DNA of 63,927 bases, filler included, from Stramenopiles sp. TOSAG23-6 (taxonomy: Eukaryota): NCBI GenBank assembly GCA_900128565.1. It is 10 parts of 10 records of this genome, joined end to end, with 100 filler letters (N's around TTAATTAATTAA, not from the genome) between each part and the next. Parts side by side here need not be neighbours in the genome. Positions count along the whole stretch, not along the records: positions 62,545 to 63,927 come from LT639136.1; 9 more parts are not named here. One strand, given 5' to 3'. Each line of letters starts with the position of its first letter. Within the stretch, counting starts at the first letter, position 1. The translations under genes were made by a program, and so were the position numbers. Positions 7,348-63,927 of the stretch are shown here, in pieces. The notes beneath the pieces were generated by a model. That model was given only the letters and a program-made list of their open reading frames with translations. It did not search any database and was not told the origin of the DNA.

Positions 7348-7426
7348 AAAATAAACTAATAATATTAAAATTGTATGCTATAAAAATATTCGAAGCTAGA
7401 ATTAATTAGATTTACTTAGATATTTG

Positions 7427-21668: not shown

Positions 21669-21723
21669 ATAAATCGATTCGTTTATTAAAAATACAGTCA
21701 ATCCTAATGCTTATGATTTAGTT

Positions 21724-27150: not shown

Positions 27151-27282
27151 AAATAAAGATGTATTTGTATGAAATTTTCTGTAATTTTGATAGAATTGAG
27201 AATACTACTTTATTCACTTGCTATTTTTATTACATTTAGTATAAATAATATTAATAAATTATAGATTGCTTTTGTGTTTGTA

Positions 27283-42521: not shown

Positions 42522-43583
42522 TTATCCGAGTCGTTTATTACGACGAACTGGAGCGGCATAAGCACCTTTAATAGAACTACCACCAATTGAAGGTAATCGT
42601 TTCTCATGGATTGCTCTTCGTTTTTTATCAAAATCTCGTTTAAGTGTATTGAAATCATTTGATTGGTTATTTTTTTTACTTGCTTCATTTCTTCTTTTTT
42701 CTTGACGTCTACGTAAAATTTCATTTTGTTTTTTTAAATTTTCTCTTCTTTTTCGCATGGCCACTTTTCGAGCATCTACTATTTTGTTATAACTTTTATT
42801 TGATGTTCTTGATCTAGATGCAGCTGAACGTCTTGAACGAACATCGAAGATTGTAGTCGCAGGTTGAGTTAAGCTTGCTGCTATTCTAGATTTACGAATA
42901 CTTAACGAAGATGTCGCATCGCCACGTCGTCGATTCATTTTTATCCGAGTTGCAATTTCAGTCTCAGCTTCAAGTTCAGCTACACGTTTCCCCAATTGTA
43001 CTAGTTTATCTAAACTTCCTACGACTGCGCTTATATTACTACTATCAGCATATTGTTCCATAATGGGAGGTGGCAGATTCGCAGTAGAATCTTCCCCTCG
43101 CAAAGCTTCTTCTTTAATCTTTGCTTTTCTTTGATTCAAAGCAGCTTCATGTGCTTTTAATATGCTTTTATTCTTTACATAATTGACTCTTCTCATTTTT
43201 ACTGATTCGCGCTTTTCAAGTCCATCCTTCAATTTTTTCAAACTAATTATATGACGTTGAATGTCCCTATCCAATCGTTCTTCATAGGATTTGTCATCTT
43301 CTTCATATTTTCTTATAAACTCCTTGCTCACCTGTAAAGGTTTTCTCTGTTCTTCTTGAATGACTTGTGACATCCAAGCAGCCTTTTCTCGCTGATATTG
43401 TTGCCTTTGAGCAGCTTTATGATCTACACGTTTCATTTTTTTTGTACGTATCAAAGCAGCCTTGAGGGCAGCATCATTAGCTAGTTTATGCCAGTGTAAA
43501 AGTTTCATTTCCTGCTCTATTGCCTGGATCTTATTTTCAGGTGTATCTGTTGTTGGTAATGTCGAGTAATCTGGTTCTATCAT
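42522..43583 (-). CDS. hypothetical coiled-coil protein
   Basis: 353-aa ATG-initiated ORF, charged helical. Confidence 0.7.
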   Translation of the reverse strand: MIEPDYSTLPTTDTPENKIQAIEQEMKLLHWHKLANDAALKAALIRTKKMKRVDHKAAQRQQYQREKAAWMSQVIQEEQRKPLQVSKEFIRKYEEDDKSYEERLDRDIQRHIISLKKLKDGLEKRESVKMRRVNYVKNKSILKAHEAALNQRKAKIKEEALRGEDSTANLPPPIMEQYADSSNISAVVGSLDKLVQLGKRVAELEAETEIATRIKMNRRRGDATSSLSIRKSRIAASLTQPATTIFDVRSRRSAASRSRTSNKSYNKIVDARKVAMRKRRENLKKQNEILRRRQEKRRNEASKKNNQSNDFNTLKRDFDKKRRAIHEKRLPSIGGSSIKGAYAAPVRRNKRLG

Positions 43584-43965
43584 TTTGAGTTAAAATGTAT
43601 TTGAATAGAAAGAAAAATATAGGTACACTTTTGTTGAAATATAGATATATTGAAGAGGTACTACTACTAGTACTACTACTACTACTCTTGAGAAAAAAAA
43701 AAAAACGTTACATTGGAACAAACCTGTTACACGGAGAATTCACAGACTAAATTTTATTTCAGAGATATATTTCATAGATCAAAGATTTTCAAGTCAGTAA
43801 TGACAATAAAGCGTTTTTTCAATGTTTCTTAAATTGGAGCAAAAAAATCAAATTTTATTATTTCAAATCTAATTAAAATCAGAAATACAACATAGTAATT
43901 GTATTTATGAGTAGTATATTTGAAACAAGATTAATTTCTACATATAGATAAAATATAATTTTTTT

Positions 43966-45228
43966 TTAAAAAAAATCATCAAGCACTTCTCGTGCATCCC
44001 GATTACCAGCTTTAGCCGATTTAGTAAACCATTTTTTAGCTTCTTCTTTGTCTTCTTCAACACCATCACCTTCAGAAAAGCAGTAACCAATCTTAAGTTG
44101 TGCTTCACTATGACCAGCATTAGCTGATTTCATAAACCACTTGAAAGCTTCTTTTTTGTCTTGAGCAACACCATCACCACGAAAATAGCATTCACCAAGC
44201 TTGTATTGTGCTTCACTATGACCAGCATTAGCTGATTTCATAAACCACTTGAAAGCTTCTTTTTCGTCTTGAGCAACACATTCACCATCAAAATAACAAT
44301 GACCAAGATTATATTGAGCATCACTATTTCCAGCATTAGCAGATTTAGTATACCACTTGAATGCTTCTTTTTTGTCTTCAGCAACACCATTACCATATTG
44401 ATAAGACAAACCAATTTTACTTTGAGCATAACTATAATCACTATTATCCATAAACATCTTAAATGCTTTTTCATCATCCTCTTTATAACCGTTCAAACCC
44501 AGATATGTACATACTGCAATTGCTGTTGGGAAACCAGCAATAGCAGCAGATTCAATCATTAGTTGTCCATTCTCTCCATCAATTTTCTGAAAGTTATTGC
44601 CCCAGTATTTTGCATCACCAAGTTCAAATAATATCTGTGCACCTTTAGTTTCAATCTTTTGACGTTTCACTGCACTATTAGATGACGATGATGAACTTGT
44701 TTTTCGTTTTTTCCCACTACTACTACTACTTGATACTGCAGGTGGTACATTCTCTTCATCGATATCTTCCAAAGGTTCCATTACAGCAGATAGTTTTGTC
44801 TCCTCTTCTTTGAGTAGTTTTGTCAATTTTTTAAAACCATTCAAACGATCACTTTGTTTCTTCTGTGCTTTAACAGCTTCATTTTGTTTTTGTTGAGCAT
44901 CTTTCATAGCTTTTACTGCCTTTGCCACAGTTTGTTGTGCTGCTTCAAGTTGTTTTTCTGCTGCTGATAATTTCTCTTTTACCTTTTCAACTGCAGCATT
45001 TGCTTTCATTATTACATTATTCATTTCTTTCCCTTCCATCATCTCTTTTAAAACAACAACGGATTTTTCATTGACTTTTCTCATTTCTCGCAATTTCAAA
45101 ATTTCTTGCATTCCTTGGTCATGTTTCTCTTTACATATAACTTGTAGTGTATCCAATGCGGATTCAACTCCTTTTGAATAATTACTGGCCACAACGAAAA
45201 CTGATTTCAACTTATCAAGACTTGACAT
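43966..45228 (-). CDS. coiled-coil + Sel1-like repeat protein
   Basis: AQY.LG.CY..G.GVAQDKKEAFKWF.KSANAG repeats. Confidence 0.9.
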   Translation of the reverse strand: MSSLDKLKSVFVVASNYSKGVESALDTLQVICKEKHDQGMQEILKLREMRKVNEKSVVVLKEMMEGKEMNNVIMKANAAVEKVKEKLSAAEKQLEAAQQTVAKAVKAMKDAQQKQNEAVKAQKKQSDRLNGFKKLTKLLKEEETKLSAVMEPLEDIDEENVPPAVSSSSSSGKKRKTSSSSSSNSAVKRQKIETKGAQILFELGDAKYWGNNFQKIDGENGQLMIESAAIAGFPTAIAVCTYLGLNGYKEDDEKAFKMFMDNSDYSYAQSKIGLSYQYGNGVAEDKKEAFKWYTKSANAGNSDAQYNLGHCYFDGECVAQDEKEAFKWFMKSANAGHSEAQYKLGECYFRGDGVAQDKKEAFKWFMKSANAGHSEAQLKIGYCFSEGDGVEEDKEEAKKWFTKSAKAGNRDAREVLDDFF

Positions 45229-45431
45229 TTGAAGANTNCANGAATCAGACTNNNNNNNNNNNNNNNNNNNNNNNNNNNNNNNNNNNNNNNNNNNNTTAAT
45301 TAATTAANNNNNNNNNNNNNNNNNNNNNNNNNNNNNNNNNNNNNNNNNNNNAAAAAAAATTAAATTCGAAATTTGTTAGGTACAAAATTTCGTACGAAAA
45401 AAACAATTTGAAATTCATAATGAAAACGTGC

Positions 45432-45511
45432 GGTATTTGCTAACTTGGGATTTCCTTTATATATCAAACCACCAAAGCATTCCACGCCAACACTTGAAAA
45501 AATAGAGAAGA
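45432..45511 (-). CDS. orphan exon resembling the S5/pore segment of a two-pore-type Ca2+ channel
   Basis: Only open frame between two elements reads FSIFSSVGVECFGGLIYKGNPKLANT. Confidence 0.5.
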
Positions 45512-45611
45512 ATGTATTTTGGAAAAATATTTCAAAAAAAAAGACCTAAAATTTGTTAGGTACAAAATTTCGTACGAAAAAAAATTCGAATTTGAAAAAA
45601 ATAAAACATAC

Positions 45612-47972
45612 ATCTGACCGTAGAAAAACTCGCCAGATAAATCGACCAAATAATCCAACAAGTGATACGATGACAAATGCTGGAAAAGTTGCCATAAGCT
45701 GTGCTGTAAAGTGATTTTCTCTTAATAATTCATCAATTGCAGACATTGCTGTTAAAAGTTCTTTCTTGATGAATTGTACTTGAATGAGCGCCAGACGTAC
45801 CATGTCTCCAGTTACTAGATTTTTCACTGGTTCCTTTACTTCTTCATCGTAAACAGCACTAAGCGCAGACATATCCATTTTTGCGGTTGCTATTGCTATT
45901 TCAGCATCTGTTAAATTATGATGATCGCCTTTAGTATCAATTAGAAAATCTCCTATCATTTTTTGTAATGATAATTTTGAATCTTCCATTGCTTCTACAT
46001 CACTTATAACTATCATTTCATTAAATACAATATCAGCAAACATTTCACTTGCAGGCTCAGTGACATGGAGATACCACCATCGTTTCACACTATTTATACT
46101 TCGTTTCATGGCTTGAAGAGCTTTTCCTCGATAAAAGGCAACAGAACATATGATCCCTATACCTAAAAGACCTACCATTGCAATCTCAGGTGTTTTACAG
46201 ATCCAATATTTTGGAATACTTACCTTTTTATACACCAAAAAACTTTGTAACTCTCCAAATGCACTGTTTACATTCATTTCATCACTTGTAGGTAATATTT
46301 CTTCACAACGGTGCATTTCTTCTCCTTGTGCCATGGCTAAAGTCCTTCCAATTTGTAGTTGCAAAGTACTGGAACGAATCACTTCTCGCCATCCTGAATC
46401 GTCACCTACCCCATTTTCTCTCGCCCAAGACCAAGCCCAGCTTCTATCAATTTCATTATTTGCTCGAGTTTTACTGACACTAAACCATGGGGGAAGCTTT
46501 TTATCCCAGTAATTCACAGGAAACTTTGATATAGCAGCATCAACCAGAAGCAAACCATTCAATGCTACATCGACCAATTCTTTATGATGCACAAAATAAT
46601 CTTCAGTTTCAAGATATAGATTGATCTCATATAGCTTGATCTTCTCCGCAGTAACACCGGCAACAAGAGGAATTGTATAATGTTCAAGCTGCTGAATTTG
46701 AAGTTGAATACTTCCTAAAACAGGAAGAATTTGTTCTTTCATATTTGATAAAAGTTGTAACTTCAACTGAAAAGAAGAGCGAAGATCACATGTATTGTAA
46801 AAAAAATTAAATTCAAAAATTTGTTAGGTACAAAATTTCGTACGAAAAAAAAATAAATTTGAAATTCATAATGAAAACGTACCTACCATATCTCGCATAC
46901 TTCGAGATGTTTGACGTAAAAGAAGAGACAATTGTGAGAGAGAATAGAATGAATTTTCTTCTTCGTAGATGTTGTCGTGGTTGGAATTATGTTGTAAATT
47001 CTTCATTTTATCTGGGTAAGTCTCATAAAAATATAAAGAGAAGCCACGTATTATCAACTCACTATCATTCAAAAGCAATAAACGACACCAATACTCTTGA
47101 CATTCTTCAAATTCTCGTAAAATGATATATAAATGTTCTCTAATTATTTGTAGTTGTAACATTGTAGAACTTGTGAGTAAATCAAGCTCTGTAATTTTTT
47201 GGGATGGATCACGCCATTTTGTTGCTAAACCCGCATCGCCTCCAGAGAGTGCGACATCTGCGTCTGCTTTAACCAAATCAAATAGTTTTTCACTAAGATT
47301 ACAGAGACTTTGACTTAATTCAGGTATACGTATTCTGGACGAGAGACCAGAAACTTTCTTGTATCTTTTCTGCGCTATTCTCTTTTTCTCTGAGGTCGGT
47401 AAAAAAGAGGCAGTAGAATTGGAATTTGATTGTCGGCGACTTAGAGATGGTGTTGCCCATCCATCTGGAAGTTTTCGTCCTTTTGGTGATACAGGTGATT
47501 TGCTTTGGTCTTTTGAATTGCTCTTCTTGTTCATAGATTTACGTTTATTTAACAGTGGCGATGAAATGTCTTTTGTATTTGGAGACAAATTTGGGGACGC
47601 ATTTGAAGCAGATATCATAGAATCACGCTTACTAGCAAGACGTTTTCGTTTTTGTTGAGCAATTTCTGCTGCATGAGTTTGAGAATAGTATTTATATAAA
47701 GCTGACATTGCCCACGCAGAAGCTAAAGTGACACCAGCGCGAAAAACCCACTTTAAAGCTGCTGGGGGATCAGATAAATCAAATCCCAACCAATGAGCAA
47801 CAGCATTAGGAGTTTCAAAATATGCCTTTCGCCAATATCGATTTTTATTATTTGTTTGAGGTGGAATCGAAGTTTCGACACCGGGAGGTTTTCTAATAGA
47901 CGTAATAGACTTTAGAGCCTTTTTCATGTCTGTGGCCAAGTCAGATGCGAATTCCTTTGCCTTTGACGCCAT
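45612..47972 (-). CDS. NCA2: NCA2/DGS1-family mitochondrial membrane protein (3' end uncertain); exons 47972-46883, 46789-45612
   Basis: YDEEVKEPVKNLVTGDMVRLALIQVQ...MSAIDELLREN...ATFPA motif; GT-AT intron 46790-46882. Confidence 0.8.
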
Positions 47973-48237
47973 GATCCTTGTATTATATGTTACTTGTCAT
48001 TACTAGAAACAGTAGCCGCTTTCTCATAATAATGTTTAAATTGATTCTTCGGCAATGAAATTGAAGTAATACGTAAATAATAGCATATTTTTTTTTAGTA
48101 ATGGGGTAATGGGATGTCAAAAAAAAATTTGATTTGATTTTTGAATGACGTCATTTCGATTTTGACTCGAGTCAAAATGGTTGTTGTGACAGACACGTTT
48201 GTTCGACGCACATAATATAGTCAAGGTCTATTTTCCG

Positions 48238-49995
48238 ATGAGCAAAATGTCTAAAACTGTACCAAACACAACAAAAGATGAAGAAAATCTCTTTGACAAA
48301 GTCTTTAGTGGGCTTGGACCTGCCATCGTAATTACTAGCTATTTATGTCTTAACGACAGATTCTCTGGACGAGCTGTCTCGAATGACAAATACCGTCCTT
48401 GGATGGTCGGTGCTGATTGGGGTAAAGTAACGTCTTGGAAAGCATCAAAGGCTGGTAACTTGGAATTTATTCAATGGTTAAGAATTCAAAATCCACCTTG
48501 TCCATGGGATAGACGGACGTGTTATGAGGCAGCTGCAAATGGTCACTTGGAAGTATTACAATGGGTAAGAAGTCAAAATCCACCTTGTCCGTGGGATAAA
48601 GAGGCATGTAGTGCAGCAGCTTCTGCAGGTCACTTAAAAATATTGAAATGGGTAAGAAGTCAAAACCCACCTTGTCCATGGGATAGATGGACGTGTGTTT
48701 ATGCAGCTAAAAATAGTCATTTGGAAGTATTGAAATGGGTAAGAAGTCAAAATCCACCTTGTCCGTGGAATGAATGGACGTGTGATTATGCAGCTGAAAA
48801 TGGTCATTTAGAAGTATTGAAATGGGTTAGAAGTCAAAATCCACCTTGCCCATGGGATAAACGTACGTGTCGTGATGCAGCTCGAAAAGGTCACTTAGAA
48901 GTATTGAAATGGGTAAGAAGTCAAAATCCACCTTGTCCATGGGATAAAGAAACGTGTTATTGTGCAGCTGCAAGTGGTCACTTAGAAGTATTGAAATATC
49001 TAAGAAGTCAAAATCCACCTTGTCCATGGGATGAAGAGACGTGTCAAAATGCAGCTTCCAATGGTCAATTGGAAGTATTGAAATGGTTGAGAAGTCAAAA
49101 TCCACCTTGTCCATGGAATTGGAGTACATGTTCGTTTGCAGTGAAAGAACGTCACTTCAAAATATTGAAATGGGTCAGAAGTCAAAATCCACCTTGTCCA
49201 TGGGATGAAAGTACATGTAGTTGGGCAGGTCGAACTGGTCAATTAGAAGTATTACGATGGTTAAGAAGTCAAAATCCACCTTGTCCATGGGATGGAAAAA
49301 CATGTGGTTGGGCAGCTAAAACTGGTCATTTAGAAGTATTGGAATGGTTAAGAAGTCAAAATCCACCTTGTCCATGGGATGAAGGAACGTGTTGGAGAGC
49401 AGCTAAAAATGGTCACTTGGAAGTATTAAAATGGTTAAGAAGTCAAAATCCACCTTGTCCTTGGGATGATCAAACGTATGATGAGGCAGCTGGGGGAGGT
49501 CACTTGGAAATATTAAAATGGGTGAGAAGTCAAAATCCACCGTTCCAGTGCGAAGAATGGACGTGTCGTATGGCAGCTGGAAATGGTCAGTTAGAAGTAT
49601 TGAAATGGTTAAGAAGTCAAAATCCATCTTGTCCTTGGGATAAAGAGACGTGTTCGGAAGCAGCTAGATATGGTCAATTAGAAGTATTGGAATGGTTAAG
49701 AAGTCAAAATCCACCTTGTCCTTGGGATGAAGGGACGTGTTTTGAAGCAGCTGACAATGGTCACGTAGAAGTAATAGAATGGGTAAGAAGTCAAAATCCA
49801 CCTTGTCCATGGGATGAATTAACATGTTCTTATGCAGTTACTGACGGTCACTTGGACGTATTGAAATGGATAAGAAGTCAAAACCCACCTTGTCCATGGA
49901 GTAATAATCCGTGTTATTGGGCAGCTCGGTTTGGTCACTTAGAAGTATTGAAATGGTTAAAAGAGGTAGAAGCCCCAGGTTATGAACTTAACTAG
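48238..49995 (+). CDS. ankyrin-like tandem repeat protein (17 x 29 aa)
   Basis: 87-bp units encoding QNPPCPWDxxTCxxAAxxGHLEVLKWLRS. Confidence 0.9.
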   Translation: MSKMSKTVPNTTKDEENLFDKVFSGLGPAIVITSYLCLNDRFSGRAVSNDKYRPWMVGADWGKVTSWKASKAGNLEFIQWLRIQNPPCPWDRRTCYEAAANGHLEVLQWVRSQNPPCPWDKEACSAAASAGHLKILKWVRSQNPPCPWDRWTCVYAAKNSHLEVLKWVRSQNPPCPWNEWTCDYAAENGHLEVLKWVRSQNPPCPWDKRTCRDAARKGHLEVLKWVRSQNPPCPWDKETCYCAAASGHLEVLKYLRSQNPPCPWDEETCQNAASNGQLEVLKWLRSQNPPCPWNWSTCSFAVKERHFKILKWVRSQNPPCPWDESTCSWAGRTGQLEVLRWLRSQNPPCPWDGKTCGWAAKTGHLEVLEWLRSQNPPCPWDEGTCWRAAKNGHLEVLKWLRSQNPPCPWDDQTYDEAAGGGHLEILKWVRSQNPPFQCEEWTCRMAAGNGQLEVLKWLRSQNPSCPWDKETCSEAARYGQLEVLEWLRSQNPPCPWDEGTCFEAADNGHVEVIEWVRSQNPPCPWDELTCSYAVTDGHLDVLKWIRSQNPPCPWSNNPCYWAARFGHLEVLKWLKEVEAPGYELN

Positions 49996-50468
49996 TAAAA
50001 ATTATGGAGTGTAAAAATAGAGTGAAATATATATTTATTTGTAGTACATCATCGTATGTATTGTTTGAAGATGAGTTTTTGATATCATTGGATATATAAT
50101 CATTAAAGAATTTCGTAATTAAATTTTTAATGTACATGTGTTTGGTAGATTATTTTACTATAATATCATACACAAACTACACCTATGAAAAAATTAGATA
50201 ATTATATTTTATAATAATTCCGGAATTATCATTCTTAGACCCAGAGTTTGTGGGTGTCAAAAATGAGTTATTCGTGGTTACCGGGTAATAATGAATTCAA
50301 ATTTTCAAATTTTCAAACTCGAATCTCTTTTTCGCGCTCGACCTCGAGAGGGAAGAAAAAGAATTCAAACAAAGGTAAATATCGTGTGACACTCTCCTTC
50401 AGAAAGTGTACTAGTTTTTCTTTTTCATTGCCCAACTGTAGACTTGGATAGTGGTATATTTATCTGCA

Positions 50469-53359
50469 ATGTTTAGCTGGACTCATCAAGGTGGTGACTC
50501 TGTCCCAGTATTTACTCCAAAGGGGAAAAACCCAACCGAAAATTGGGACCTGTCTGGTAATGTTGTTAAAGTGTATGACCGAGTCGCTCGTGGGTATACA
50601 TACGAGTGTAGCGGTGGCCCTTCCACATCAATGCGTCTACCCGCAGATTTGCGTTCGTCTCTTGGTTTGACGCAGTCCTTTTTAACTTTACAAATACTCG
50701 TTCCATCGACTACCCCATTTTCAATGGACATTGAAGTACAAGCAGAAGCTACACAGGAGACTCAAGCAAAACTTCAAAGTCCAGAAAAAATGGTATCTAC
50801 AATCAAGCGCCGCCCAGTTCATTTGAAATTCTCAACTGCATTCAAAGATTCTAATTTTAATGGACTCCACGCTCAAATACCTCTTTCAAAGATACCTCGT
50901 AATAGATGGCTAAACTTGTGTTTAGATCTGCCTGACTTAGTTTCAAGTTGTTTTTTACACAGTCCCAATTTTATCTCTTGTGCAGCAATTACAATTGGTG
51001 CAACATGTCGACTTCGACGAATATTTACTATGCGAGATCCTCCTAGTGTTGCACATCAAACCTTGTGGTTATCTGACAAAGAAAATATGCAGTCTTTGGA
51101 TGAAAGAAACCCTAACCCTAACTCTACACAAGATTTTTCTGAAACATATACAAATATTGGATATATTCCAAGGCGTTATCAATTTTCACCCGATGCGAAT
51201 TCGTCTACTATTATTATGAATTCAAAGGTATTACAAAAGTCTTTCACGTCAAAAGATACAAAATTAAAAAAAAGAAACCAAAAGAGTCCAAAAAATCCTA
51301 CCCCTACAAACCCTAACCCTACAAACCCTAACCCTTCGCAAAAATCCAATGGAACAAAATTAAAAGGTGTAACTATATCTGCACTTCGTGGACTTGAAGC
51401 TGCTCGGAAGCGGCGAGATTCCCTCTCAAAAAAAAAACGAAACTCTGCTGGGCTTGGCACAAAATTTCCAGGTTTTGGTTCAGTGCCCATTCGGAAACCG
51501 AGACGAAACCCTAACCCTAAAGCAAAAAGGAGTTTACATAAAAAATTTTCAAATGTAAAAAAAAAGACTGTTCCTACAAATTCTACAAATCGTACAAGAA
51601 AACTCAAAACATCAGCAATTGAAAAAAATGAAAAAAATGAAAAAAATGAAAATTTGAAGTTTGAAGGACGAAAAAAAAAATTGAAAGAAATGAATGAAAA
51701 TTTGAAGTTTGATACAAAATTTAGTACAAAATTTGGTACTCTGTCGCCTCACGTAGAATGGAGGAATAGAATGCCAACAAAAGAGTCAAACGATTTTGAA
51801 TTTTCTACAGCTGACAATTCTTCAGAAAAGTCACAAATTCGAAATTCAATAGAATTTAAGACAAATCCTCAAGATTCAATTTCGAATTTATCTCTTAGTA
51901 CTCCAAATATGACTACTACTCAATCTACTCCTACTGCAAGACCACCTTTAACAATATCATCAAATAAATTTGGTGTGTTTGAAATTGGTAGTCCTGAATA
52001 TTCAGAAATGTTGATGAAACAGGGTTATAAACCTATTATAACTCCAGTGTTGGGTTCTTCCCTCTGTATGTTTTCATTTTTTTTTTTTTACCATTTGTTT
52101 TTCGTACGAAATTTCGTACCTAACGTTTTTTTTCAATTTTTTTTTTTCACAATACATATTCAAAATATACGAAATCACCCAAGAAGGGTACAAATGATAA
52201 AAAACTACATCATTCTCCATTATTAACTTTAGACGATTTAACAAATCCAAATTTCATTGACCAAAATGAAAATATGGATAATGGTAATGTTGATGAAGGA
52301 AAGCCAAAGTTAAGCCCTAAATATAATTATTCAAAAAATTCAAGTTATTACGAAAAAAGGATGAAAGTTCTAGAAGAAAAAAAAAGAGAATTACTTGATT
52401 TAGAAAAAAAATTAGAAATGCAAAAAACGAAAATAGGTGATAATTTGATGAATGTAGATATAAAATCAGATTTCCATAATGATAAAAACAAATCAAATAA
52501 ACACAATAAAATAAATGAAACAAATGAAAGTATTTCAGAACAAGACATTTTACATGATGTTTTTGCCAACATAAGTATTAAAAATAGCAAATATGATATT
52601 AGAAATTACATGAACAAAAATATAAAGTCAGAAAAATATGAAAAAAGTGGAAAAAGTGGAAAAGATGAAGATACAAAAATGTCCCGAAACCTAATCAGAA
52701 AAGAACCCTCGAAAGAAAATCATAACCCTAATAACACTAATAATCTTAATAGTACTCAAAATCTAATCCAACCTATGAAAAAAATACAAGAGCAAACTGT
52801 ACATCAAAAAGTCCATGAGGATGACATAAAGCAAAAACCACAGAAAACTTTTGTACATTCCTCAAGTGAAACAAAGGTAGAAACGAAAGGATCAAACATC
52901 GTTAAGGAACAAAACTGCTTTCATCAAAAGCCTTCGACTCATCGAACATTTGAAGAAAAACTTAGAGAATTACATGAGAGAACTTGTACAAGACTTGCAA
53001 ATACATCTAGATTACAAACTATGCATCCAAACACTATAAGAATTCAACATCGGTTACTGCAAAATAAGGAACTGAGTAGTACTGGCAGTGACTCTCAGCA
53101 CATTCAAAATTCATTACGATTTGGTACAAATTTAATTTCGAATTTGTCAAGTCCTGCCCCTTTGCCTAATAGTGTAGCTCTTATTAAACATTCTAACCCT
53201 AACCCTAATCTCATTCCTAACTATAATAAAAGACATATTCTTGGAAAAGACAATCAAATGACCACAAATAGAACAGAACTGGCTGAGTTGATGTTTGATC
53301 CATTACTTAATTGTTATTTTAATCCTGTTACAAATCAATTTTTCAAATTAAAAAAATAA
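50469..53359 (+). CDS. CFAP20DC: CFAP20-domain-containing protein (C3orf67-like); exons 50469-52065, 52158-53359
   Basis: N-terminal CFAP20/DUF667-like domain (SLGLTQSFLTLQ, WLNLCLDL, CRLRRIFTM) and C-terminal LMFDPLLNCYFNPVTNQFF; GT-AT intron 52066-52157. Confidence 0.8.
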
Positions 53360-53701
53360 AATTCGAAATTGAGAATTTTCTTTTGCAAAAGCCATTTTAT
53401 TTATAGGTTCTAGTGAATTTACACACTGGAAAAATATATAACCTCTGTTGGTTCATGATGTAGTACTTTCAGTTCATTTGCATTGCATTCAATCACGAAA
53501 TATCCGTAATCATAATTATTCAATTCTTTTTTCTCGGAGGTTTTTTTTCTTGTCGAGGAGGTATCTGCCAGACTGCGACGTCGACGTGGTATGTATACGT
53601 AATACAAGAATTCAAAACACAATTCAAAACTGTGGTTACACGCGTCGTGCGAGTTTGGAATACTCCAACTCTAAAAATATTATCTAAAGAACTCTGGGAA
53701 A

Positions 53702-55344
53702 ATGGAAGAAATAAGCAGCAACCTTATCCATACTTTTGAACAGACCAAAATTCCTCCATCGCAAATTCGGTGTACCTCGTCCCTGAAACCGTTATCTTGG
53801 GTTCTTCAATATCGCGAAGATTACAATAGTTTTCGCCGAGGCGCTAGTTCAGGCTCTCAAGGTGAAATTAATTACCCAAAAAATGGTTTCGTTGACATAA
53901 TGACGAAATATGAATGTTTTTCTGAAAGTCCAAGACGAAAGTTTCTCAATAAGAATCGTAATCATGAGGCGTGGTCAATACAGCGTCCTAGAAAAATATC
54001 AATGGACGATCATTTCGACTGGATACGTAGGGAGATACCTGCTATTCAGAAGGTATCACAATTTAATTTTCGGAAGCGTTATCGGATGTTTCGACGAGGA
54101 GCATACAGAAAAAGTCGAACTTTAGAACATTTTGTAGGTTGGGAAAATGAATATAAGAAAGGAATAAAAAGTAAAGTTTCAAGTAGATCGACTATCGGTA
54201 TTTTTGATTCTGGCATAGGTGGATTAACCGTATATAAAGAAATTCGTCGTGTATTTCCAAAGAATGACATTGTTTACTTTGCAGATATGTTGAGACAACC
54301 TTGTTTGTTGTCACTATAATTTCACTTTTTTTTCCCATGAACATTTCGTACCTTAGCTAACAAATTTCAAACGTAAAACACTTTTTTTTCCATAGAACAT
54401 TTCGTACCTTTGCTAACAAATTTCAAACGTAAAACATATTTTTTCACAATATATGGGGTAATCAAAAGCAGTCTACTGTAGCGTTTTATTGTCGTGAAAT
54501 TATGAATTTTTTAAAGAGGGAAAATTGCACAGTAATCATAGTTGCATGCAAATATCATATATTTTTTACACTCAGATTATAACAAATCCTACACCAAGTC
54601 ATCTTTTGCTAATTTATTTCTAAAAACATGAAATATTACACACAAATTATCACAGCCACAGCAGCAATATTTGATAATAGAGTAAATTTTCTTGAAGAAT
54701 ATTCCAATATACCAATTATAGGAACAATTCCATTTGCTTGTCGAGAGGCTCTATCATTAAAGATGAAAAGAAATAACCTAAATAATAAGATGACTAGAAT
54801 ACGTCACATTGGAGTCATTGCAACTGAAGGTACTGTTACATCTGGTGCTTATTCTCGTGCATTGACTGCATTCGCCACCGCTGATGGTCGACCGGTGCTT
54901 GTGACTGAAATGCCATGCCCAATGTTCATGCATATTGCAGAAAGTGGAATTATCATGACTCCTGAAAATATCGAACTCGCATCAAAATATTTATTCCCAG
55001 TACAACTGAAAACAAAACCAAAAACTCACAAAAAATGCAATACATTACAATACCCAATAGATACTATAATATACGGTTGTACTCATTACCCGGTTCTCTC
55101 TGAACTATTGGAAGATTTGGTATTTAAAACGTTTCAACGGCCGGACGTCAAATTTGTTGACCCTGCAAACGCAATGATGAATGATATTAAGAAAGCTGTC
55201 TTTGTGGGAAATAATGAAGATCTAATGAATGTGAAGGGTAATACTCGATTTTGTGTCAATTCTTTAGTGGATCGTTTTGGAAAAAGTGCATCAAGAATTC
55301 TTAAAATGGATGTAAGAGAACAAGTCGAATTAGTAAAATTATAA
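53702..55344 (+). CDS. murI: glutamate racemase (MurI-like) with N-terminal extension; exons 53702-54302, 54455-54551, 54651-55344
   Basis: IGIFDSGIGGLTV, D..RQPWG, IIVAC-N-TATA (after splicing), IGVIATEGTV.SGAY, IYGCTHYP, FVDPA. Confidence 0.85.
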
Positions 55345-55368
55345 TGAATTTTTTTTTTTAAATAAAAA

Positions 55369-56415
55369 CTAAATAACAAAATTTATGATTTTGTCCGCCG
55401 ACCAATGTACTTGTTTAATATAATATTTAATCAGAGATTGGGCGCCTGAAGAAACAAATAATAGAAAAGGAAACGGAGTTACAACGCGAACGATCGGGAT
55501 CTCGCACGAAGAATCAAAATGGGGAAAGAGGAAGTTGATTATCGTAAACGTTTATTAGGGTTGGGGAAAGAAAAAGTTGTTTATCGTAAACGTTTCTTTT
55601 AAACTTGTCACGTACCAGTCGTCTGTAACAAAGCTAATACATGTAATGAACGCTCAAGAAATACTTTAACACGTGTTCTTGCATCCATATCTAAATAAAC
55701 AGAATGCTTTCCATTATTTTCCACTCTTGAATCACAAACTTGAAATCCATTAGGTACAAAATTTGTATGAATAGGATTTTCTATACGTGTTCTAGATGCT
55801 AAAGCGATAAGAACATCTCCTTGATGGGTCGGATAAAAGACAACATATTGTGAAAAAATATTTTTGTTTTTTTGGTTGAAAAAAAAAAATCATTTAGGTA
55901 CGAAATTGCAAAAAAAAAAATGAACTTTGAAAATTTGTTAGGTATAGAATTTTTTTTTTACTAAAAAAAAAAAAAAATGATTTTTTTTTTTGAAAACCTA
56001 CACAAAAGGTAATTGTATGGAAGGAAATATTTTTGGTGAATATAAACACTCAATAAATGAAACTAAAAGTTTTTTTGTTTTAACCGCATCTTCTGATGTT
56101 ACAAAATCATCTCTGTGCCGTGTACTATGATATACTGTGAAAAAAAAATTGTTTTTGTAAAATTTGTTAGGTACGAAATTTCGTACGAAAAAAAAATCGA
56201 AATTCAAAATTGAAAAAAAAATAAAACATACATATATATTTTCCAACATGGAGCAAACATCTTCAGCCCAATACAAAATTTTCCGAAACAGAGCCGCTTT
56301 GAGATTCATTTCAGATGGATTTTGTGTTTTCTTTTTCTTTGAGGCAGCAACAAGAACAGGACCAAGAATAGATGGAACTATTTGTGTGTCTGAGGTTTGA
56401 AGAAAAGCCAATAAC
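55369..56415 (-). CDS. hypothetical protein (5' partial); exons 56415-56232, 56129-56002, 55842-55616, probably 55445-55369
   Basis: Frames join across element introns 56130-56231 and 55843-56001 and a likely canonical GT-AG intron 55446-55615. Confidence 0.5.
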
Positions 56416-56472
56416 AAGTATTGTGAAAAAATATTTTTTTTTGTAAAATTTGTTAGGTACGAAATTTCATAC

Positions 56473-56506
<34 letters not shown>

Positions 56507-56706
56507 NNNNNNNNNNNNNNNNNNNNNNNNNNNNNNNNNNNNNNNNNNNNTTAATTAATTAANNNNNNNNNNNNNNNNNNNNNNNNNNNNNNNNNNNNNN
56601 NNNNNNATTTTGGAAAAATTTTTAAAAAAAAAACTAAAATTTTTTAGGTACAAAATTTCGTACGAAAAAAAAAAAAAAAAAAAAAAAATGTCTAATGAAA
56701 ACAAAC

Positions 56707-57171
56707 ATGCATACGAGGGACCCACTGATCCTCCGTTATTGGTGGATTCAGAAAATTTGGAGCCCAATCTTGATGTAAAATGGCATCTGCGTTCTCACGT
56801 AGAACAATGTTCATTGCACCTTTAGCACCATACCTTGCAAATAATTGACTGGGTGATCCAGGGGTGTAACTGTCACCTGCTAACCAATTTTTCCTGACTT
56901 TTTCCTTCTGTTTCTCCATTTTCCGAATTCTTTCAGCACGAATCGCTGCCTTTGATGCTGCTCTTATCGAACCAGGACGTTTATTAAGCATAGGTGCTTC
57001 CCAGCTATATAAACTAGGTAATTCGCACCATAACTCAGCACGATTCTTGACAAGTTTGGACGTTGGATTCACGTTATAGAGATTTCCTATACGTGAAGAT
57101 GACTTTTGAAACTTTGTCAATTCGGGAGTTCCTCGAAAGGTTTGCTTTTTCTTTCTTATAGATTTTCTCAT
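56707..57171 (-). CDS. hypothetical protein, first exon (3' partial)
   Basis: Open frame ending at an element donor GTTTGT at 56706. Confidence 0.5.
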
Positions 57172-57590
57172 CAACAAAATCAATGTGTACAGATAATTTT
57201 AGAGTTTTACACTACACAAAAACTGCGGTAGTAAAGAATGAAAGTATCGTCGAAACGTTTTGTGTCAAATGTTTTGGTAGTACTACCTTTTCATTATTAT
57301 TATTATTATTATTCTAGGGTATAATATATATGTAACTGTTTTTGAAACCGTAGAGCTCCTAAAAATAGTTATACGTAGTAGCTATATATAGTACTAGTCA
57401 TTTTTTTGTATATCACAATTATACCTGGCTGCTCTACAAAAATACAAAAATACAAAACTACAAAATAGTGATTATATAAATAGGCTAGTAGCAATGTCAT
57501 TGTGAATAATAGATACTGATATTTTGATATTCTTGGTCTATTCTTTATAAATTATATTTCTACTTCAAGGTAAACCTTTTCACAAATTCA

Positions 57591-57959
57591 ATGAACGGGC
57601 TCAACCTAGATGATGATACGTGGTACTACAAAGATAACGAAAATATCACACAGGGTCCTTTTACACCCATAAAAATGCAGGAATACTTTGAAAGGAAACA
57701 ACTTCCGCCAGATCTGATAATATCTAATTCTCCTATTGGTCCTTGGGTAAAATTAAAGACTAAAGGTTCAGACCCATTTAGGGTTAATGAGGAGAAAATT
57801 TCAAAAGAAGCTCTGGAAGCTGAAGTTGAAAGAATTGAGAAGATGCGCCAAGATAGAGAGGCTGGGAATGCTGGTACACTTGAAGAAAGATTTCCCATTG
57901 GAATCCCCTTGTCAAAAGTTGTTAAATTAGAATGTAGCAAATTATACTCGAGAGGAGGC
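57591..57959 (+). CDS. GYF-domain protein, first exon (3' partial)
   Basis: WYYKDNENITQGPF...M...F GYF pattern; ends at GTATGT donor 57960. Confidence 0.7.
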
Positions 57960-58147
57960 GTATGTTTTTTTTTTTTTTCATAANTTTTTTTNNNNNNNNN
58001 NNNNNNNNNNNNNNNNNNNNNNNNNNNNNNNNNNNTTAATTAATTAANNNNNNNNNNNNNNNNNNNNNNNNNNNNNNNNNNNNNNNNNNNNAAAAAAAAA
58101 TAAAAAAAAAAAAAAATTACAAAAAAAAAAAAATTAAAATTACATGC

Positions 58148-59299
58148 ATAACTGCTCATCGTACCCATATTTGGATTTAAAAGATTTTTCTTTTTCAAGT
58201 AAGTTTTAACAAGAAGTAGGACATGTGTAGCATGTATACCAAAAGTATCCAAATCTCTTTTGATATAGTCAACTGTGTTTGAAACGGAACTCTCGGAAAA
58301 ATTGTTGTTTATCGTAATGTCGACTGTAATACCGTTATCACGTTTAAATATCCTCTGAATGTGTAAAAAAATATGTTTTATATTGTGTTGTGGGATATTA
58401 GTATTATGTGTGTAGAAACGTAGAAATGTAGAAATGTAGAAAAACATATCGAAGCATTACAAAGAGGAAAAAAATGAAATATATAATGATATATATAATA
58501 TAATCATATACATAATAATATATATGGTGATATATATAATAGTAAATTAGTTGTTATGATAAATACGATGAATAGATTGAAAAATTACCAATAATTGATG
58601 TAGTTGTCCCACAACGTCTATTTCTTGAGAATCTTGACGTAGATGACGTTCTACAGTTTGACCTAGATGATGGTCTACAGTTGAAACGTCAACTACAAAA
58701 TCTGCATCTGAATGACCAGGTAAAAAAAGACCATTTGCAGCAGAACCGTATATTTTCACTGTAGCACTTGGCCATATGTGCTTTTGAATAGTATTTTCTA
58801 TTAAATCACGTGCATCGTGTACTTTTTGTAATTGAATCGTTTGTTGACGAGTGATTTCAACGAGAATTGGTTGTAATTTTGTATCCACTGACCTTGTCAA
58901 TAACTTGTATTGTTGTTGTTGTTGTTCTTGCAGTTTGGCATCAAATTCGGATTCTAATTCGTGCAAAGATGTGGCTTCCATAAAATGCTCTTGAACAATT
59001 TCGTTTAAACTATTTTCCAACTGATTAATCAAAACTAGTTTTTGTTTTGCTGCATCTTTTAACATCCAAAGCCGAGTGTTGAAAGAATCCTTTATTACGG
59101 TACTGCCATCAATTGAGTCTAACATCAATTGGATTCGTTCACTCTGAGATAGAATCTGGTTACGAATGTTGGACAACGGAGAATAATATGGTTGAAAAAC
59201 TGGACTTGATGGTCTTAGTCCATGTTGCATTGCTAAAGCAATTTCGAAAAAAGTACAAATTGTACAATATATACATATTAATTTTGTATTTACACTCAT
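58148..59299 (-). CDS. TUTase/non-canonical poly(A) polymerase-like nucleotidyltransferase (partial, exon structure uncertain)
   Basis: IYGSAANGL...SDADF, VDITINN and GTMSSY motifs. Confidence 0.65.
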
Positions 59300-59653
59300 T
59301 GTATTTGTTTATAACCGAATATATTCAAGTATATATGCTGATGGGAGTGTTGTAACAATATTATTCGTATTTGTATACTATTGTATGTACCAACAACAAC
59401 AAACTCTTAAAAACTGTAAAGAACATATGGACTTTTTTGATTTTCGATTTGAGATGTGACGCTGGCTCTCGAATCTNNNNNNNNNNNNNNNNNNNNNNNN
59501 NNNNNNNNNNNNNNNNNNNNTTAATTAATTAANNNNNNNNNNNNNNNNNNNNNNNNNNNNNNNNNNNNNNNNNNNNCCAACCCCCTGACCCACAAAACCC
59601 CCGCCCTCTTGACCCTTTTAAGGGCCTGAGAAAGCCAGGCCGCACAAGGTTAT

Positions 59654-59725
59654 AGGCGCTACCGGGGCTTGAACCCGAGACCTTCCGGTTAACAGCCGGA
59701 CGCTCTACCACTGAGCTATAACGCA
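59654..59725 (-). tRNA. trnN: tRNA-Asn (GUU)
   Basis: Cloverleaf: AGCTCAGTGGTAGAGC D-arm, TCCGG-CTGTTAA-CCGGA anticodon arm, GGTTCAAGCC T-loop. Confidence 0.92.
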
Positions 59726-60001
59726 CAAGCCCCCACTAGAGCTAGGGCGACCCACGAGTCCAGTGCGGTGGCAGGGACTGTTAGGGCCCTCAAGTGAGCC
59801 CCGGTAAACTTAAGGAAATAAAGGGGAGATCACCCCTATAAAAGAAGCTTAAGAACGGGGGTACCCCAAGACCTGCCGTGCTGTAGCCCAAACGCACTCC
59901 CCACCCAGCAGCAAAGGCCTGGGAGGGCGGGAGCATAGGTTGCAGGGCCTAAGCCCTAACGGCCCACGAGCTAAAGCCCACTAAAAGGCAGAATAGGCCA
60001 A

Positions 60002-60072
60002 CGCAGGTAAGAGGAATTGAACCCCTACTCCCGGCTTTGAAGGCCGGTGTGCTACCGTTACACCACACCTGT
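60002..60072 (-). tRNA. trnW: tRNA-Trp (UCA), reads UGA as Trp
   Basis: CCGGC-CTTCAAA-GCCGG anticodon arm, short variable loop, GGTTCAATTCC, G73. Confidence 0.88.
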
Positions 60073-60154
60073 GACGTGAGGGAAGGCCAGTGGCGTAGAA
60101 AACCTTTGACGCAAATAACTCAGACCCCTCTACCAAAGGCCCAGCACCCAGCCC

Positions 60155-60306
60155 CTAGAAGGCGAACAGGGTGGGGAAGGCCATCGCCAGCCCGGGATGG
60201 CATAAATAAACATCTGCTGCTTCTCGCCGGGTTTGCGCGATAGTCCTATGATGAGAGGCCCGAACACGGTACCGATCCCTACTCCAGGCCCGGCTATGAA
60301 GACGGC
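60155..60306 (-). pseudogene. atp9: atp9 (ATP synthase subunit c) fragment, 5'-truncated, with internal deletion/frameshift
   Basis: [36 protein letters not shown], then [11 protein letters not shown] in a shifted frame. Confidence 0.75.
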
Positions 60307-60384
60307 TCATGTATTTCTAGATAAGGGGGGAGCAAAGGTAGGGTGCGGCACGCCTTTGCTCCCCCCTTATCTAGAAATACATGA
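60307..60384. repeat. perfect 32-bp inverted repeat with 14-nt loop
   Basis: TCATGTATTTCTAGATAAGGGGGGAGCAAAGG / CCTTTGCTCCCCCCTTATCTAGAAATACATGA. Confidence 0.95.
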
Positions 60385-60829
60385 TAAGGATGAAGCATAT
60401 GAGGCACCCCAGAAGGGCGAGCACCTCTAGCTGGGAAAAACCGTAGGGCCGTAGGATGGCTTCTTCCAGTATGAAGAAGGCCAGGAGGGCGAGAAAAAAC
60501 ACCCGCCGCCTGTGGTCTAACGACCATCACCACCAGCTTCACCACCAGACGACATACACCACCCGCGCTACTACGATCAACCCCAACTCCAGGAGCCAAT
60601 ACCCGGCACGGGTTCTAAGACGGCCCAGGTAGGCCTTCATGTAGGCCACGCACGCTTTTAGTTTCTGACTAGGCGAGAGGCCCACAAGCTCTTTCTTTAT
60701 CGCGATCAAATAAACACATCCACCAACAAAAAGTACTAGTAAAGCAATCACACAGTGAGCCGGGTCCCTTGATTGGAGCGCATAAACAGCAACTAATACG
60801 CTTGCGAGGTAAAGGAGCGCTGTAAGCAT
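60371..60829 (-). CDS. nad6-like hydrophobic ORF (152 aa with UGA=Trp); only the N-terminus is nad6-like
   Basis: MLTALLYLASVLVAVYALQSRDPAHCVIALLVLF resembles Nad6 S.NPVHSVL.L; two in-frame TGA in a Trp-rich stretch. Confidence 0.5.
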
Positions 60830-61135
60830 ATAACGTAGGCGTAGTATTACGCCACCCAGGGCCAAACCCGAGCTCTGGGCGCACCCCAAACCTCAGGTTT
60901 GAAGACAACTGGCCTTAATTCTTTTAAGTCAGACCCCCAACGCAAGGTNGCGCGGACCACNNNNNNNNNNNNNNNNNNNNNNNNNNNNNNNNNNNNNNNN
61001 NNNNTTAATTAATTAANNNNNNNNNNNNNNNNNNNNNNNNNNNNNNNNNNNNNNNNNNNNTTAATTTTTTTTTTTTTTTGTAAAAAAATTTCGTACCTAA
61101 CGATTTTTTTTTTGAAATATTTTTTCACAATACTT

Positions 61136-62385
61136 TTAATCTACAACAAAAGAGAATTAATAAAGAACAATGGCAAAACTCACATACATTACTTCAAAAA
61201 GCCTCTATAGGAACATTGGCAAAAGTTCATCATATTTGCAGTACAATAGCCAGCATAATTCAACTAGATATACAACGTGAAATTCGATATTTACAAAGAG
61301 TAAAATCTAAAAGAAATAAAGAAATTCCGTCATTGGGTCATTGTGACATTGATAATAACTATAAAAGTATCGATACATTGAATGATTCAATACAGTTAAT
61401 CCATAATCAAGGAATGAAATATGTACAACTGATATCTAAGAAAATAAGTAAAGAAACTTCGAAAAGTCACCGAGGCAATATCTTAAAAAAAACTAAATCT
61501 CGTGCTGATTTGCTATTAGAACGCCGAAGTCCATTAAAAGTTAGAAAAAGAAGAAAAAAAAAACGACCAAGAAAAGATTTAAATGATTGTAAAACGGATC
61601 AAAAACGACCAAGAAAAGATTTAAATGATTGCAAGGATGACTCAGGCATTGACCTTTTCAAACGTCGCAAAACAAGAAAGGAAGAAATATCCAACAATGA
61701 TCAAAGTAAGAATAAAAATAAGAAAGAATCTTATTATGATGAAAATATTGAAAATGATGTGAAATTTGGATCACTTGGAGAAAATTCATCTGATAAAAGA
61801 ACATGTCCGTTTCAATGATAAATTTCAAATATTTTTTTTTTCGTACGAAATTCTGTACCTAACAAATTTATGTTTTTTTTTTCTAAAATATTTTTTCACA
61901 ATACATCAAACTCATCGAACTGTAAAGAATTTTCACCAACGAATGCTAGAATAGAAGAAATACAAAAAATACATCAATCTAATGTAACTAAAAGTGCTAT
62001 AAACACCCAAACACTTGCAATAAGTACAAGTACACTGTCATCTAGTAATCCTAACCCTAGGATAAATGTTATAGGAAATCAAATGAGCTCAATTATTCTT
62101 GAACCAAATGAAAACTCTACACTATCCAGTGATGTACAGAGTAAAAGACTCGATACCAAAACAAATGTATCGAATGATTATGTAAAAAATGGTACGAATC
62201 CTTCACTCCGTACATCACAAACAGAATCTGAAACCCAATCTAAAAATAACCCTAACCCTAACATGAAAAATACTACTGAAAAAGATCTTTTACGGTCTTG
62301 TATTCGAACCGAATTGAAACGTTTGTTACCTAAGCGTATCACTCTTGATTATGATTACTTTGAGCGTATATTTTGTGTAGCTCAT
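61136..62385 (+). CDS. hypothetical low-complexity protein (partial); exons 61136-61804, 61907-62385
   Basis: Frames join across GT-AT intron 61805-61906; flanked by elements at both contig ends. Confidence 0.65.
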
Positions 62386-62599
62386 GTACGTTTTCATTAT
62401 GAATTTCAAATTTATTTTTTTTTCATACGAAATTTTGTACCTAANNNNNNNNNNNNNNNNNNNNNNNNNNNNNNNNNNNNNNNNNNNNTTAATTAATTAA
62501 NNNNNNNNNNNNNNNNNNNNNNNNNNNNNNNNNNNNNNNNNNNNTCGTACGAAATTTTGTACCTAACGATTTTTTTTGAAATATTTTTCCAAAATACAT

Positions 62600-63875
62600 A
62601 ATCGACAGTTTGAAAGAAAGATTCCTGGAGAAGGTAGTTCTTTAGCGAATGCTGTGAAGCAATGTACTGTACGTTTTCATCATTCATCATTCAAATTTCA
62701 AATTTATATTTTTTGTAGTACATTTTGTACCTGACGATTTTGTTTTTTTGGTCAAAAAAAAAAAAATATTTTTATACAATATCTGAAGCTGCCCGTTCAA
62801 TATTTTTTGCAGAACTCACCCAAGTTGGTCAAAATGTCTTAGCTCAAAAACCACCATCCAGTCTTGGAGTTTCTACTGGCCTTTCTCATGTATTGGCTAA
62901 TCTTTCAGCTGTTTTAAAGGTGCATGTATGTTTTATTTTTTTTTTTAACAAAAAAATCGAAATGTTTTTCGTACGAAATGTTGTACCTAACGATTTTTCT
63001 TGAAATATTTTTCCAAAATACATTCTCGTTCACTTGTATTTGCTACAACTAATGATCGTATAGAGAGTTTCACAGATACACTAAGTGCTTTTGTAGAACC
63101 TTTGTTGCAATTGTATATTTTATTTTTTTTCAATTTCGAATGTATTGTTTTTTTTCATACGAAATTTCGTACCTAACAAATTTTACAAAAACAAAATATT
63201 TTTTTACAATATATGTGTCGAATGGGAAAGAAAAGTTTACAACCAACAGATTCTGCAATATATGCTATTAATAATATTTTAGCAATACAGAATGCTCTTG
63301 TACCTTATGATTTCACATCATTTTGGGTACAGAAATTAGCAGAAGAGGCGTCATCGTATGTCGACATTGTGGTTGATGAAGAATCAAGAAGTGTTTTAGA
63401 GAAATGTTCGTTTTCATCATTCATTTCAAATTATTTTTTCATACGAAATTTTGTACCTAAACAAAAAACAAAAAAGATTTTTTTTGTGACATCTTCGTTT
63501 TTTCATCATTCATTTCAAATTTCAAATTTCAAAATTATTTTTTTGTACCTTACTCCAAAGATTCCTTCTATGATTTCAAATAATATCATTTTTTTTGTTT
63601 GACGTTTAATAGACTAACAAAACAATCGATTGTGACATATTTTTTCAAAAACATGTGATATTTTCGAAAAATTACAATGTATTGAGTCTAAGGATAGAGA
63701 TATTCCACTGAGTACACTCCCTAGAATGAGTGCAAGTAATGTAAAAGATGCTGTACAAAAACTGTATTCTGCATTCATACAAAATTCACTACCTGAGTTT
63801 GATGGTATATTGAGTCCAAGGCTTCGTGGAATGGTACGAACCGGCTGTCAGGATGCTCTTGCAAGGGCTCATCAT
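62600..63875 (+). CDS. COG6: conserved oligomeric Golgi complex subunit 6, C-terminal part; exons 62600-62668, 62785-62925, 63024-63112, 63215-63405, 63655-63875
   Basis: Spliced: PPSSLGVS...VLKVHSRSLV...FTDTLSAFVEPLLQLCR...AIYAINNILAIQNALVPYDFT...LPEFDGILSPRLR; six element introns. Confidence 0.75.
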
Positions 63876-63927
63876 GTATGTTTTATTTTTTTTCAAATTC
63901 GATTTTTTTTCGTACGAAATTTTGTAC

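Follow-up and report, generated by a model that had tools for sequence, protein, structure and literature searches.

Ordinary protein-coding genes in the 63,927-base stretch of DNA that we analysed (hereafter the window) are interrupted by a family of repeated, element-like and probably mobile introns that begin with GT and nearly always end in AT. Judged from their sequences, these introns are introner-like and have come to occupy unrelated genes. Nearly all spliceosomal introns end in AG, and the family has no AG end (0/29): among the intron ends seen in complete and cut copies, 25 are AT, two are TT, one is CT and one is GT. The last base is T in all of them, and the preceding base is mostly A, also T, C or G. 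We favor, at roughly even odds (a probability of about 0.5), the reading that each element carries its own acceptor, the location of which would be set by position. The earlier note had proposed a MITE-like transposon with a duplicated 2-bp target (AT preferred, NT allowed), the downstream copy of which serves as the 3′ splice site. We regard this proposal as possible, if doubtful.

The window consists of ten contigs (positions 1-11267, 11368-22621, 22722-33946, 34047-45251, 45352-56506, 56607-57991, 58092-59476, 59577-60960, 61061-62444 and 62545-63927) joined by N44-TTAATTAATTAA-N44 linkers, and contigs that adjoin in the window are not adjacent in the genome. The DNA is AT-rich (~31-40% G+C) and contains long ORFs for ordinary eukaryotic proteins, namely Dis3, ESCRT-II, a DEAD-box helicase, CG-1/ankyrin, NCA2, CFA20 and COG6. 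The best relatives of the Dis3 protein are 52-53% identical to it, and a Blastocystis protein (42%) is among the first named matches. Three seawater metatranscriptome runs contain 0.06-0.11 of the words sampled from positions 46400-56399. The second contig is a palindromic chimera with an identical 1033-aa ORF on both strands; the mirror at 16850-16949 of the intron copy at 16468-16567 belongs to this assembly chimera and was excluded from the counts.

A scan of the window for canonical GT-AG introns identified none, each of the 44 GTRAGT sites being off-frame or inside a continuous ORF. The intron family is represented by 23 complete copies and by 12 that are cut by contig ends, six at the 5′ side and six at the 3′ side. 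We aligned 17 copies end to end, and a profile built from this alignment (nhmmer) yielded 48 matches in the window. When the segment that begins at the GT and closes two bases past CACAATAY is removed, the host reading frame is restored for all 23 complete copies; one of these (34967-35063, the weakest member, nhmmer E = 0.0066) passed in a shorter test only, its ORF stopping 22 codons downstream. The lengths of the complete copies span all three classes modulo 3, and identity to the nearest neighbour ranges from 0.51 to 0.90. The hosts are unrelated genes (ESCRT-II, DEAD-box helicase, LRR, NCA2, CFA20, racemase and COG6), and every full-length profile match is in the sense orientation relative to the ORF that it interrupts. 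Between genes or in antisense, only degenerate fragments with uninformative flanks were found (24031-24078, 35241-35266, 35383-35434 and 38131-38196). A search elsewhere with a 20-nt core pattern returned one metagenome contig (L001, one copy, AT/AT) and nothing in viral contigs. Another match (L002) sits inside a bacterial AraC-like ORF and was rejected as chance.

Copies of the family share a layout in which GTAYGT is followed by a palindrome and a TACCTAAC box, a T-run, CACAATAY and then two nucleotides. With at most one mismatch, the box GTACCTAAC occurs 40 times versus 6.7 expected, a number reached in none of 100 shuffles. Immediately before CTAAC lies a strong internal inverted repeat, GTACGA-AATT-TYGTAC; the palindrome is perfect in a minority of copies, includes a G-T pair in 14 of 30 and exhibits no compensatory changes. 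A script placed the branch box in 21 copies; in 19 of them it lies 33-50 nt from the 3′ end, and the values of 95-96 nt for the remaining two arose where the script had taken an upstream box. In 15 of these 21 copies there is no AG after the branch box. The copy at 56130-56231 bypasses a CAG located 5 nt before its end, the use of which would break the frame.

We propose that each copy would bring with it GTAYGT, an imperfect palindrome (GTACGAAATTYGTAC) leading into the TACCTAAC branch box, a T-run and the CACAATAY box. The 3′ cut would be made two bases past CACAATAY, at a distance of 33-50 nt from the branch box; the last base would have to be T, and A would be preferred before it. The 3′ site would thereby be set by position relative to the 3′ box of the element, not by recognition of a fixed dinucleotide. 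The usual AT would be the element's own rather than a copy of the target, and CT, GT and TT would be tolerated point variants. In the copy at 62669-62784 (copy R), AT would have mutated to CT, and the match to the CT at the exon end would most likely be chance (~3 in 23). In the copy at 55843-56001 (copy Z), an A-to-G change in the acceptor would have been harmless, since both cuts can slide by 2 nt to yield an identical mRNA, and the match there may reflect survivorship. A related but rather unlikely variant would keep measurement from the internal box and assign the 3′ site to the insertion: an active DNA element would duplicate a two-base target with any first letter, and the spliceosome would find this copy by measuring from the box rather than by searching for AG.

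Copy R was singled out in the earlier note for its CT/CT borders. This 116-nt sequence on the plus strand (nhmmer E = 6.6e-12) resides in a COG6-like gene and reads CT^GTACGTTTTCAT...GTACCTGAC...ACAATAT-CT^GAAGCT, where ^ marks a predicted cut; the letters reported for it, CT^GTACG...ACAATAT-CT^G, are indeed present. Its candidate 5′ splice site is GTACGT (62669-62674), which conforms to the family consensus GTAYGT. The alignment places a branch-box variant, TACCTGAC, at 62728-62735 with a degenerate left palindrome arm, and the 3′ box ACAATAT with its terminal CT (62776-62784) is in register with the CACAATAY plus AT of other copies. The exon-side CT (62667-62668) represents codon positions 2-3 of a Thr codon, ACT. 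Reading through copy R encounters a stop codon, and its flanking exons join in frame after removal.

The host assignment is based on single exons: on Pfam COG6_C, exon 63216-63404 aligns with positions 291-353 (E = 2.6e-09) and the exon after it with positions 359-428. Exon 62785-62925 has no match among the longer proteins of the protein collection. To place the borders of copy R, we fetched 18 relatives with one exon, built a profile from the 11 that are 300-1000 aa in length, and scored three spliced forms against it. The form produced by cuts at GT62669...CT62784 scores 203.3 bits, versus 197.3 bits when the AT at 62775 is used as the acceptor and 195.6 bits for GT62664...AT62782, which places the alternatives 6.0 and 7.7 bits lower, respectively. 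In pairwise comparisons, the CT form outscores the 62664 form for five relatives, equals it for three and falls below it for three (n = 11), and it is behind the 62775 form for none.

These scores bear on the alternative that copy R is not cut at CT, but is instead processed from the donor GTACTG at 62664 to the AT at 62782, or to the AT at 62775, or that C62783 stems from misassembly or from a disabling mutation. Both alternative cut patterns keep an open frame and GT...AT ends, and the exon upstream of 62664 would end in AT. The mRNA from the 62664 donor would be 3 nt shorter, and the spacing between COG6 anchors is 18-20 residues in most aligned relatives, with which the form that is one residue shorter is also compatible. 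Moreover, the assembly derives from a single cell and may contain a base error at 62783. Against these possibilities stand the profile scores, a QC-x-E motif common to the COG6 relative P0004 and the CT-junction form, and the lack in GTACTG of the G at +5 that is present in most copies. In addition, TT acceptors at 61135 and 56416 indicate that non-AT ends exist elsewhere in the family. We consider it quite improbable that copy R is cut at a site other than CT or owes its CT to a sequence error. An AG preceded by a good T-run, at 62811-62812, was examined as a canonical acceptor and rejected; it is 28 nt beyond 62784 and out of frame.

Thus, homology moderately favors the exact removal of 116 nt from copy R. 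With the donor at the conserved GTACGT, removal of 116 nt makes CT the predicted acceptor. As far as sequence can establish it, 62669-62784 is a genuine, diverged copy of the introner-like family with a non-AG end. Given that frame and COG6 profile place the end of this unit at CT, the 3′ end of the family appears to tolerate C, G or T at position -2.

The ends of the remaining copies permit the two readings of the acceptor to be compared across the family. Twelve of the 23 complete copies have AT at both the exon end and the intron end (AT/AT; plus strand unless noted): 2273-2366 (minus), 16468-16567, 22906-23003, 23264-23393 and 23745-23883 (both internally rearranged), 37308-37410 (DEAD-box helicase gene), 39700-39806, 45512-45611 (minus; NCA2-domain gene), 56130-56231 (minus), 61805-61906 (which starts with GTCCGT), 62926-63023 (in the gene shared with copy R) and 63406-63654 (two copies head to tail, whose flanking exons are collinear on Pfam COG6_C at positions 353 and 359). 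One copy is CT/CT (copy R), one is GT/GT (copy Z, 159 nt, minus) and nine are mismatched. The mismatches are CT/AT at 23470-23567 (near consensus) and 52066-52157; TT/AT at 39981-40225 (a 245-nt composite), 54303-54454 (glutamate-racemase-like gene) and 63113-63214 (in the gene shared with copy R; the least diverged copy, 0.90 identical to that at 56130-56231); GT/AT at 6832-6932 and 34967-35063; AG/AT at 46790-46882 (minus; near consensus, 54.7 bits); and GG/AT at 1662-1754 (minus). Two cut copies, each a 3′ part that has lost its 5′ side at a contig end, finish in TT at 61135 (61071-61135) and, on the minus strand, at 56416 (56416-56481), as had been stated. Exon 56232-56414, upstream of the latter acceptor, has no match among the longer proteins of the protein collection. 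The earlier note was correct about the mismatches at 23470, 52066, 54303 and 63113, but its list omitted those at 6832, 34967, 39981, 46882 (minus) and 1754 (minus), and its description of AT as the usual flank at either end fits the 12 AT/AT copies but not the other 11.

Exon and intron ends are identical in 14 of the 23 complete copies versus 11.2 expected (permutation p = 0.017), although this test is post hoc, in that the same data suggested the idea. The excess favors a duplicated target, and it derives entirely from copies R and Z. Both complete non-AT acceptors therefore match the exon end (2/2), which counts against an element-borne acceptor. A target duplication that prefers AT would also be expected to produce a bias at exon ends, and this too would weigh against the element-borne acceptor. 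The letters reported for copy Z on the minus strand are correct (GT^GTAGG...CACAATAT-GT^T), but its register is ambiguous: with GT at the exon end and AT closing the 3′ box, both cuts can slide 2 nt upstream to give a GT...AT intron and an identical mRNA. When copy Z is recoded in this manner, as GT(GTAGG)...CAATAT^, identity drops to 13/23 (p = 0.13). Register sliding offers no explanation for copy R, where the exon-side CT could not serve as a donor. The repeated, element-like intron family with a non-AG acceptor described in the earlier note stands, whereas the evidence for duplication from exon-intron identity hangs on two copies, one of which is ambiguous.

Several asymmetries disfavor duplication. 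The acceptor is AT in 9 of the 11 copies with a non-AT exon end. Complete copies have AT at 21 of 23 intron ends versus 12 of 23 exon ends, and inclusion of cut copies gives 25/29 versus 16/29. Acceptors that have drifted while the exon end stayed AT were not seen (0 copies), but nine copies differ in the reverse direction, which points to selection for A at position -2 and disfavors non-AT targets as usable sites. Under duplication, the mismatches would be explained by a later change on the intron side, as in the original proposal, or by a change on the exon side, a variant that we consider here. Some mismatches could indeed represent exon drift from an original AT. The exon base at -2 is a synonymous third codon position in three of the nine (52066, 34967 and 54303), and at the 63113 junction the TTG (Leu) of this gene corresponds to Met (ATG) in 6 of 17 COG6 relatives, a substitution that amounts to 1.4 bits on the COG6 profile and leaves the register undecided. 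However, restoring AT to the exon would alter an amino acid in six of the nine. Later optimization of the acceptor to AT is less economical than an AT borne by the element, because it would be needed in seven of the nine mismatches (those with non-AT NT exon ends), including copies near the consensus.

Duplication had also been expected to leave identity enriched among the youngest copies, and this is not what we observe. In a ranking of 22 copies by nearest-neighbour identity, R and Z are 17th and 18th, the top-ranked copy (63113-63214) is mismatched, and match status is unrelated to divergence (Mann-Whitney p = 0.33). The copy at 46790-46882 is likewise mismatched yet near consensus. Given these results, a 2-bp duplication may have occurred in some form, but we lean against it.

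The exon sequences that flank the family have T at -1 (25/29), A at -2 (17/29), C or A at -3 (22/29) and G after the intron (15/28). Exon ends of CT, GT and TT each make up ~10-15% in the window. The classical proto-splice pattern is (C/A)AG^GT...AG^G, and the context observed here is this pattern with T replacing both Gs. Such a context would be expected from a target preference, from duplication or from a requirement of the splicing machinery.

A further alternative is that these are AT...AC introns of the U12-like class, with both cuts located 2 nt upstream (^ATGTA...TAC^). For the 12 AT/AT copies this register would produce an identical mRNA, and the branch box TACCTAAC loosely resembles the U12 branch consensus. 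U12-type introns carry a 5′ box of ATATCC or GTATCC and the branch box TCCTTAAC. The conserved start of the present family is GTAYGT, not ATATCC. Furthermore, AT is absent before the GT in 11 of 23 copies and the final C is replaced by T in 8 of 23, and thus the AT...AC register is not general. We judge this alternative to be very improbable. A search of the window with Rfam models detected two tRNAs only and no snRNA, an outcome that is neutral with respect to a U12-like reading.

The anatomy of the elements also fails to support a MITE. The terminal inverted repeats described in the earlier note are, in the register used there, perfect matches of 1.7 nt on average. Five of the 23 copies reach the maximum of 4 nt (GTAT...ATAC), and ten, among them copy R, have no terminal match (0 nt). 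MITEs are expected to have terminal inverted repeats of ~10 bp or longer. The self-complementary AT does give AT^GTA...TAC-AT^ an inverted-repeat axis, as duplication would have it, and the axis consists mostly of this AT adjoining GTA...TAC; no inverted repeat other than the internal one at the branch box is strong. The 30 ORFs of the window yielded no transposase domain. That all full-length copies are sense to the host gene is a further point against insertion with target duplication. Sense-only copies with intact ends fit reverse splicing as well as they fit selection on DNA insertions. The copies, their orientation, the restored frames and the COG6 scores are observed directly, whereas we infer that the transcripts are spliced, that the 3′ site is chosen by position and that the family is mobile.

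Fungal introner-like elements are not known to duplicate a target or to carry inverted repeats as they spread, and they have canonical GT...AG ends. The family described here resembles them in that its members are similar introns, present in sense only and lacking clear transposon hallmarks, but differs in its ends. The shared absence of these hallmarks fits our preferred reading, in which the element carries both splice sites.

Other known systems share some of these properties. As described in the portions of PMC11282704 and PMC7789003 that concern them, Micromonas IE1 and the introners of Aureococcus anophagefferens are likewise many similar, short, non-coding introns that occur in unrelated genes and carry their own splice signals. 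According to the same portions, these introners have GT/GC...AG ends, duplications of 3 nt or of constant length, and clear terminal inverted repeats. In Micromonas pusilla IE1, the 3-nt target duplication supplies the 3′ ag (as presented in PMC11282704), a precedent for the duplication reading. The present family differs in its AT ends (also TT, CT and GT) and in its terminal inverted repeats of 0-4 nt, and any target duplication in it is questionable.

A second precedent comes from the tunicate Fritillaria borealis (Henriet et al. 2019, as summarized in part of PMC11282704), which has non-canonical, MITE-derived introns whose 3′ site comes from an exonic TAC. It follows from the origin of this site that a non-AG acceptor supplied by duplication has precedent. 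Like those of F. borealis, the introns reported here are transposon-like and have a non-AG 3′ end. In that summary, however, the F. borealis introns mostly have AG...AC or AG...AT ends without a normal GT start, whereas the present family has a strong, yeast-like GTAYGT and a fixed branch box. The repeated introns of Amoebophrya lack GT-AG ends, and direct repeats of 3-5 nt overlap their exon/intron borders and render these borders ambiguous, as outlined in the relevant part of PMC7789003. The same part describes inverted repeats of 8-20 nt that pair the ends of the intron, and no preferred end dinucleotides. In the present family the ends pair over 0-4 nt at most, and the end letters (GT...AT) are nearly fixed. 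Thus, the family differs from those of Micromonas, Fritillaria and Amoebophrya in its combination of a strong GT start, a branch box, a near-fixed AT end and almost no terminal inverted repeat.

Within the limited literature collection that we searched, nothing describes a protist intron family with GT...AT ends. A family with a GT start and a branch box that ends in AT, TT, CT or GT would mean that the spliceosome picks the 3′ cut by position or by some other signal. Standard gene finders would be expected to misread most genes of the host organism. If the intron end also duplicated the target of insertion, each newly inserted element would erase itself from the mRNA, which could explain how coding sequence came to be filled with these elements. 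Self-erasing insertion, if true, would bear on how introns invade genes in bulk.

The internal palindrome of the intron family consists of the arms GTACGA and TYGTAC, which precede CTAAC and, judged from the sequence of the branch-box region in 30 copies (for example at 23512-23534), would pair with one another in the RNA. The pairing of the arms before CTAAC includes a G-U pair in 14 of the 30 copies and a G-C pair in 10, and in 13 of them the first pair of the arms is disrupted. The arms show no compensatory changes among these copies.

A palindrome of a different scale is presented by the contig at 11368-22621, which is perfectly palindromic about a centre at 16664-16753 and is an amplification chimera. 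Its turning point falls exactly within the internal palindrome (...TTTCGTACGAAA...) of one family copy, the 5′ end of which, an exon ending in AT followed by GTATGTTTT, lies at 16664. The contig at 59577-60960 is G+C-rich and looks different from the remainder of the window. It carries two tRNA genes on the minus strand (59654-59725 and 60002-60072), and possibly represents DNA of foreign or organellar origin within the assembly.

Two family copies lie head to tail at 63406-63654, with no intervening exon. The second of these starts with CTTCG, where GTTCG would be expected, which leaves the outermost GT and the final AT as the sole usable ends. In the minus-strand copy at 56130-56231, TTTTTCACAG lies 5 nt upstream of the AT end and resembles a consensus acceptor. 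Splicing at this acceptor would shift the reading frame into a stop codon, and thus the AG there is apparently passed over. The DEAD-box helicase ORF runs at its end into a degenerate antisense copy (38131-38196, minus strand), so that its final residues and stop codon are encoded by the element's reverse strand.

The racemase-like gene contains a second interruption (about 54555-54640) that lacks a GT start, and nhmmer yielded no family assignment for it. Joining ...IIVAC to TATAAIFDN cannot yield the usual ACNTA motif; in-frame joins across the interruption give only Lys or Ile, with ends AT...AT or TA...TA. The 5′ side reads ATATCAT, which recalls U12-type starts.

Outside the window, the 20-nt core pattern has a match at 401-420 of a Bacteroidales MAG contig, within an ORF reading ...HRHDFYEILYLTNGSGF...; this match is due to chance and is no copy of the family. 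A metagenome contig bears a family copy on its minus strand (about 352-464), in which an exon ending in AT is followed by an intron running from GTATGTTTT to CACAATACAT and then by G. This copy sits in a gene of higher G+C, and downstream of it are an apparent canonical intron (GTAAGT...AG, after an exon ending in AG) and TTAGGG-like repeats. The presence of the copy on this contig indicates that the family also occurs in a relative of the window's organism.
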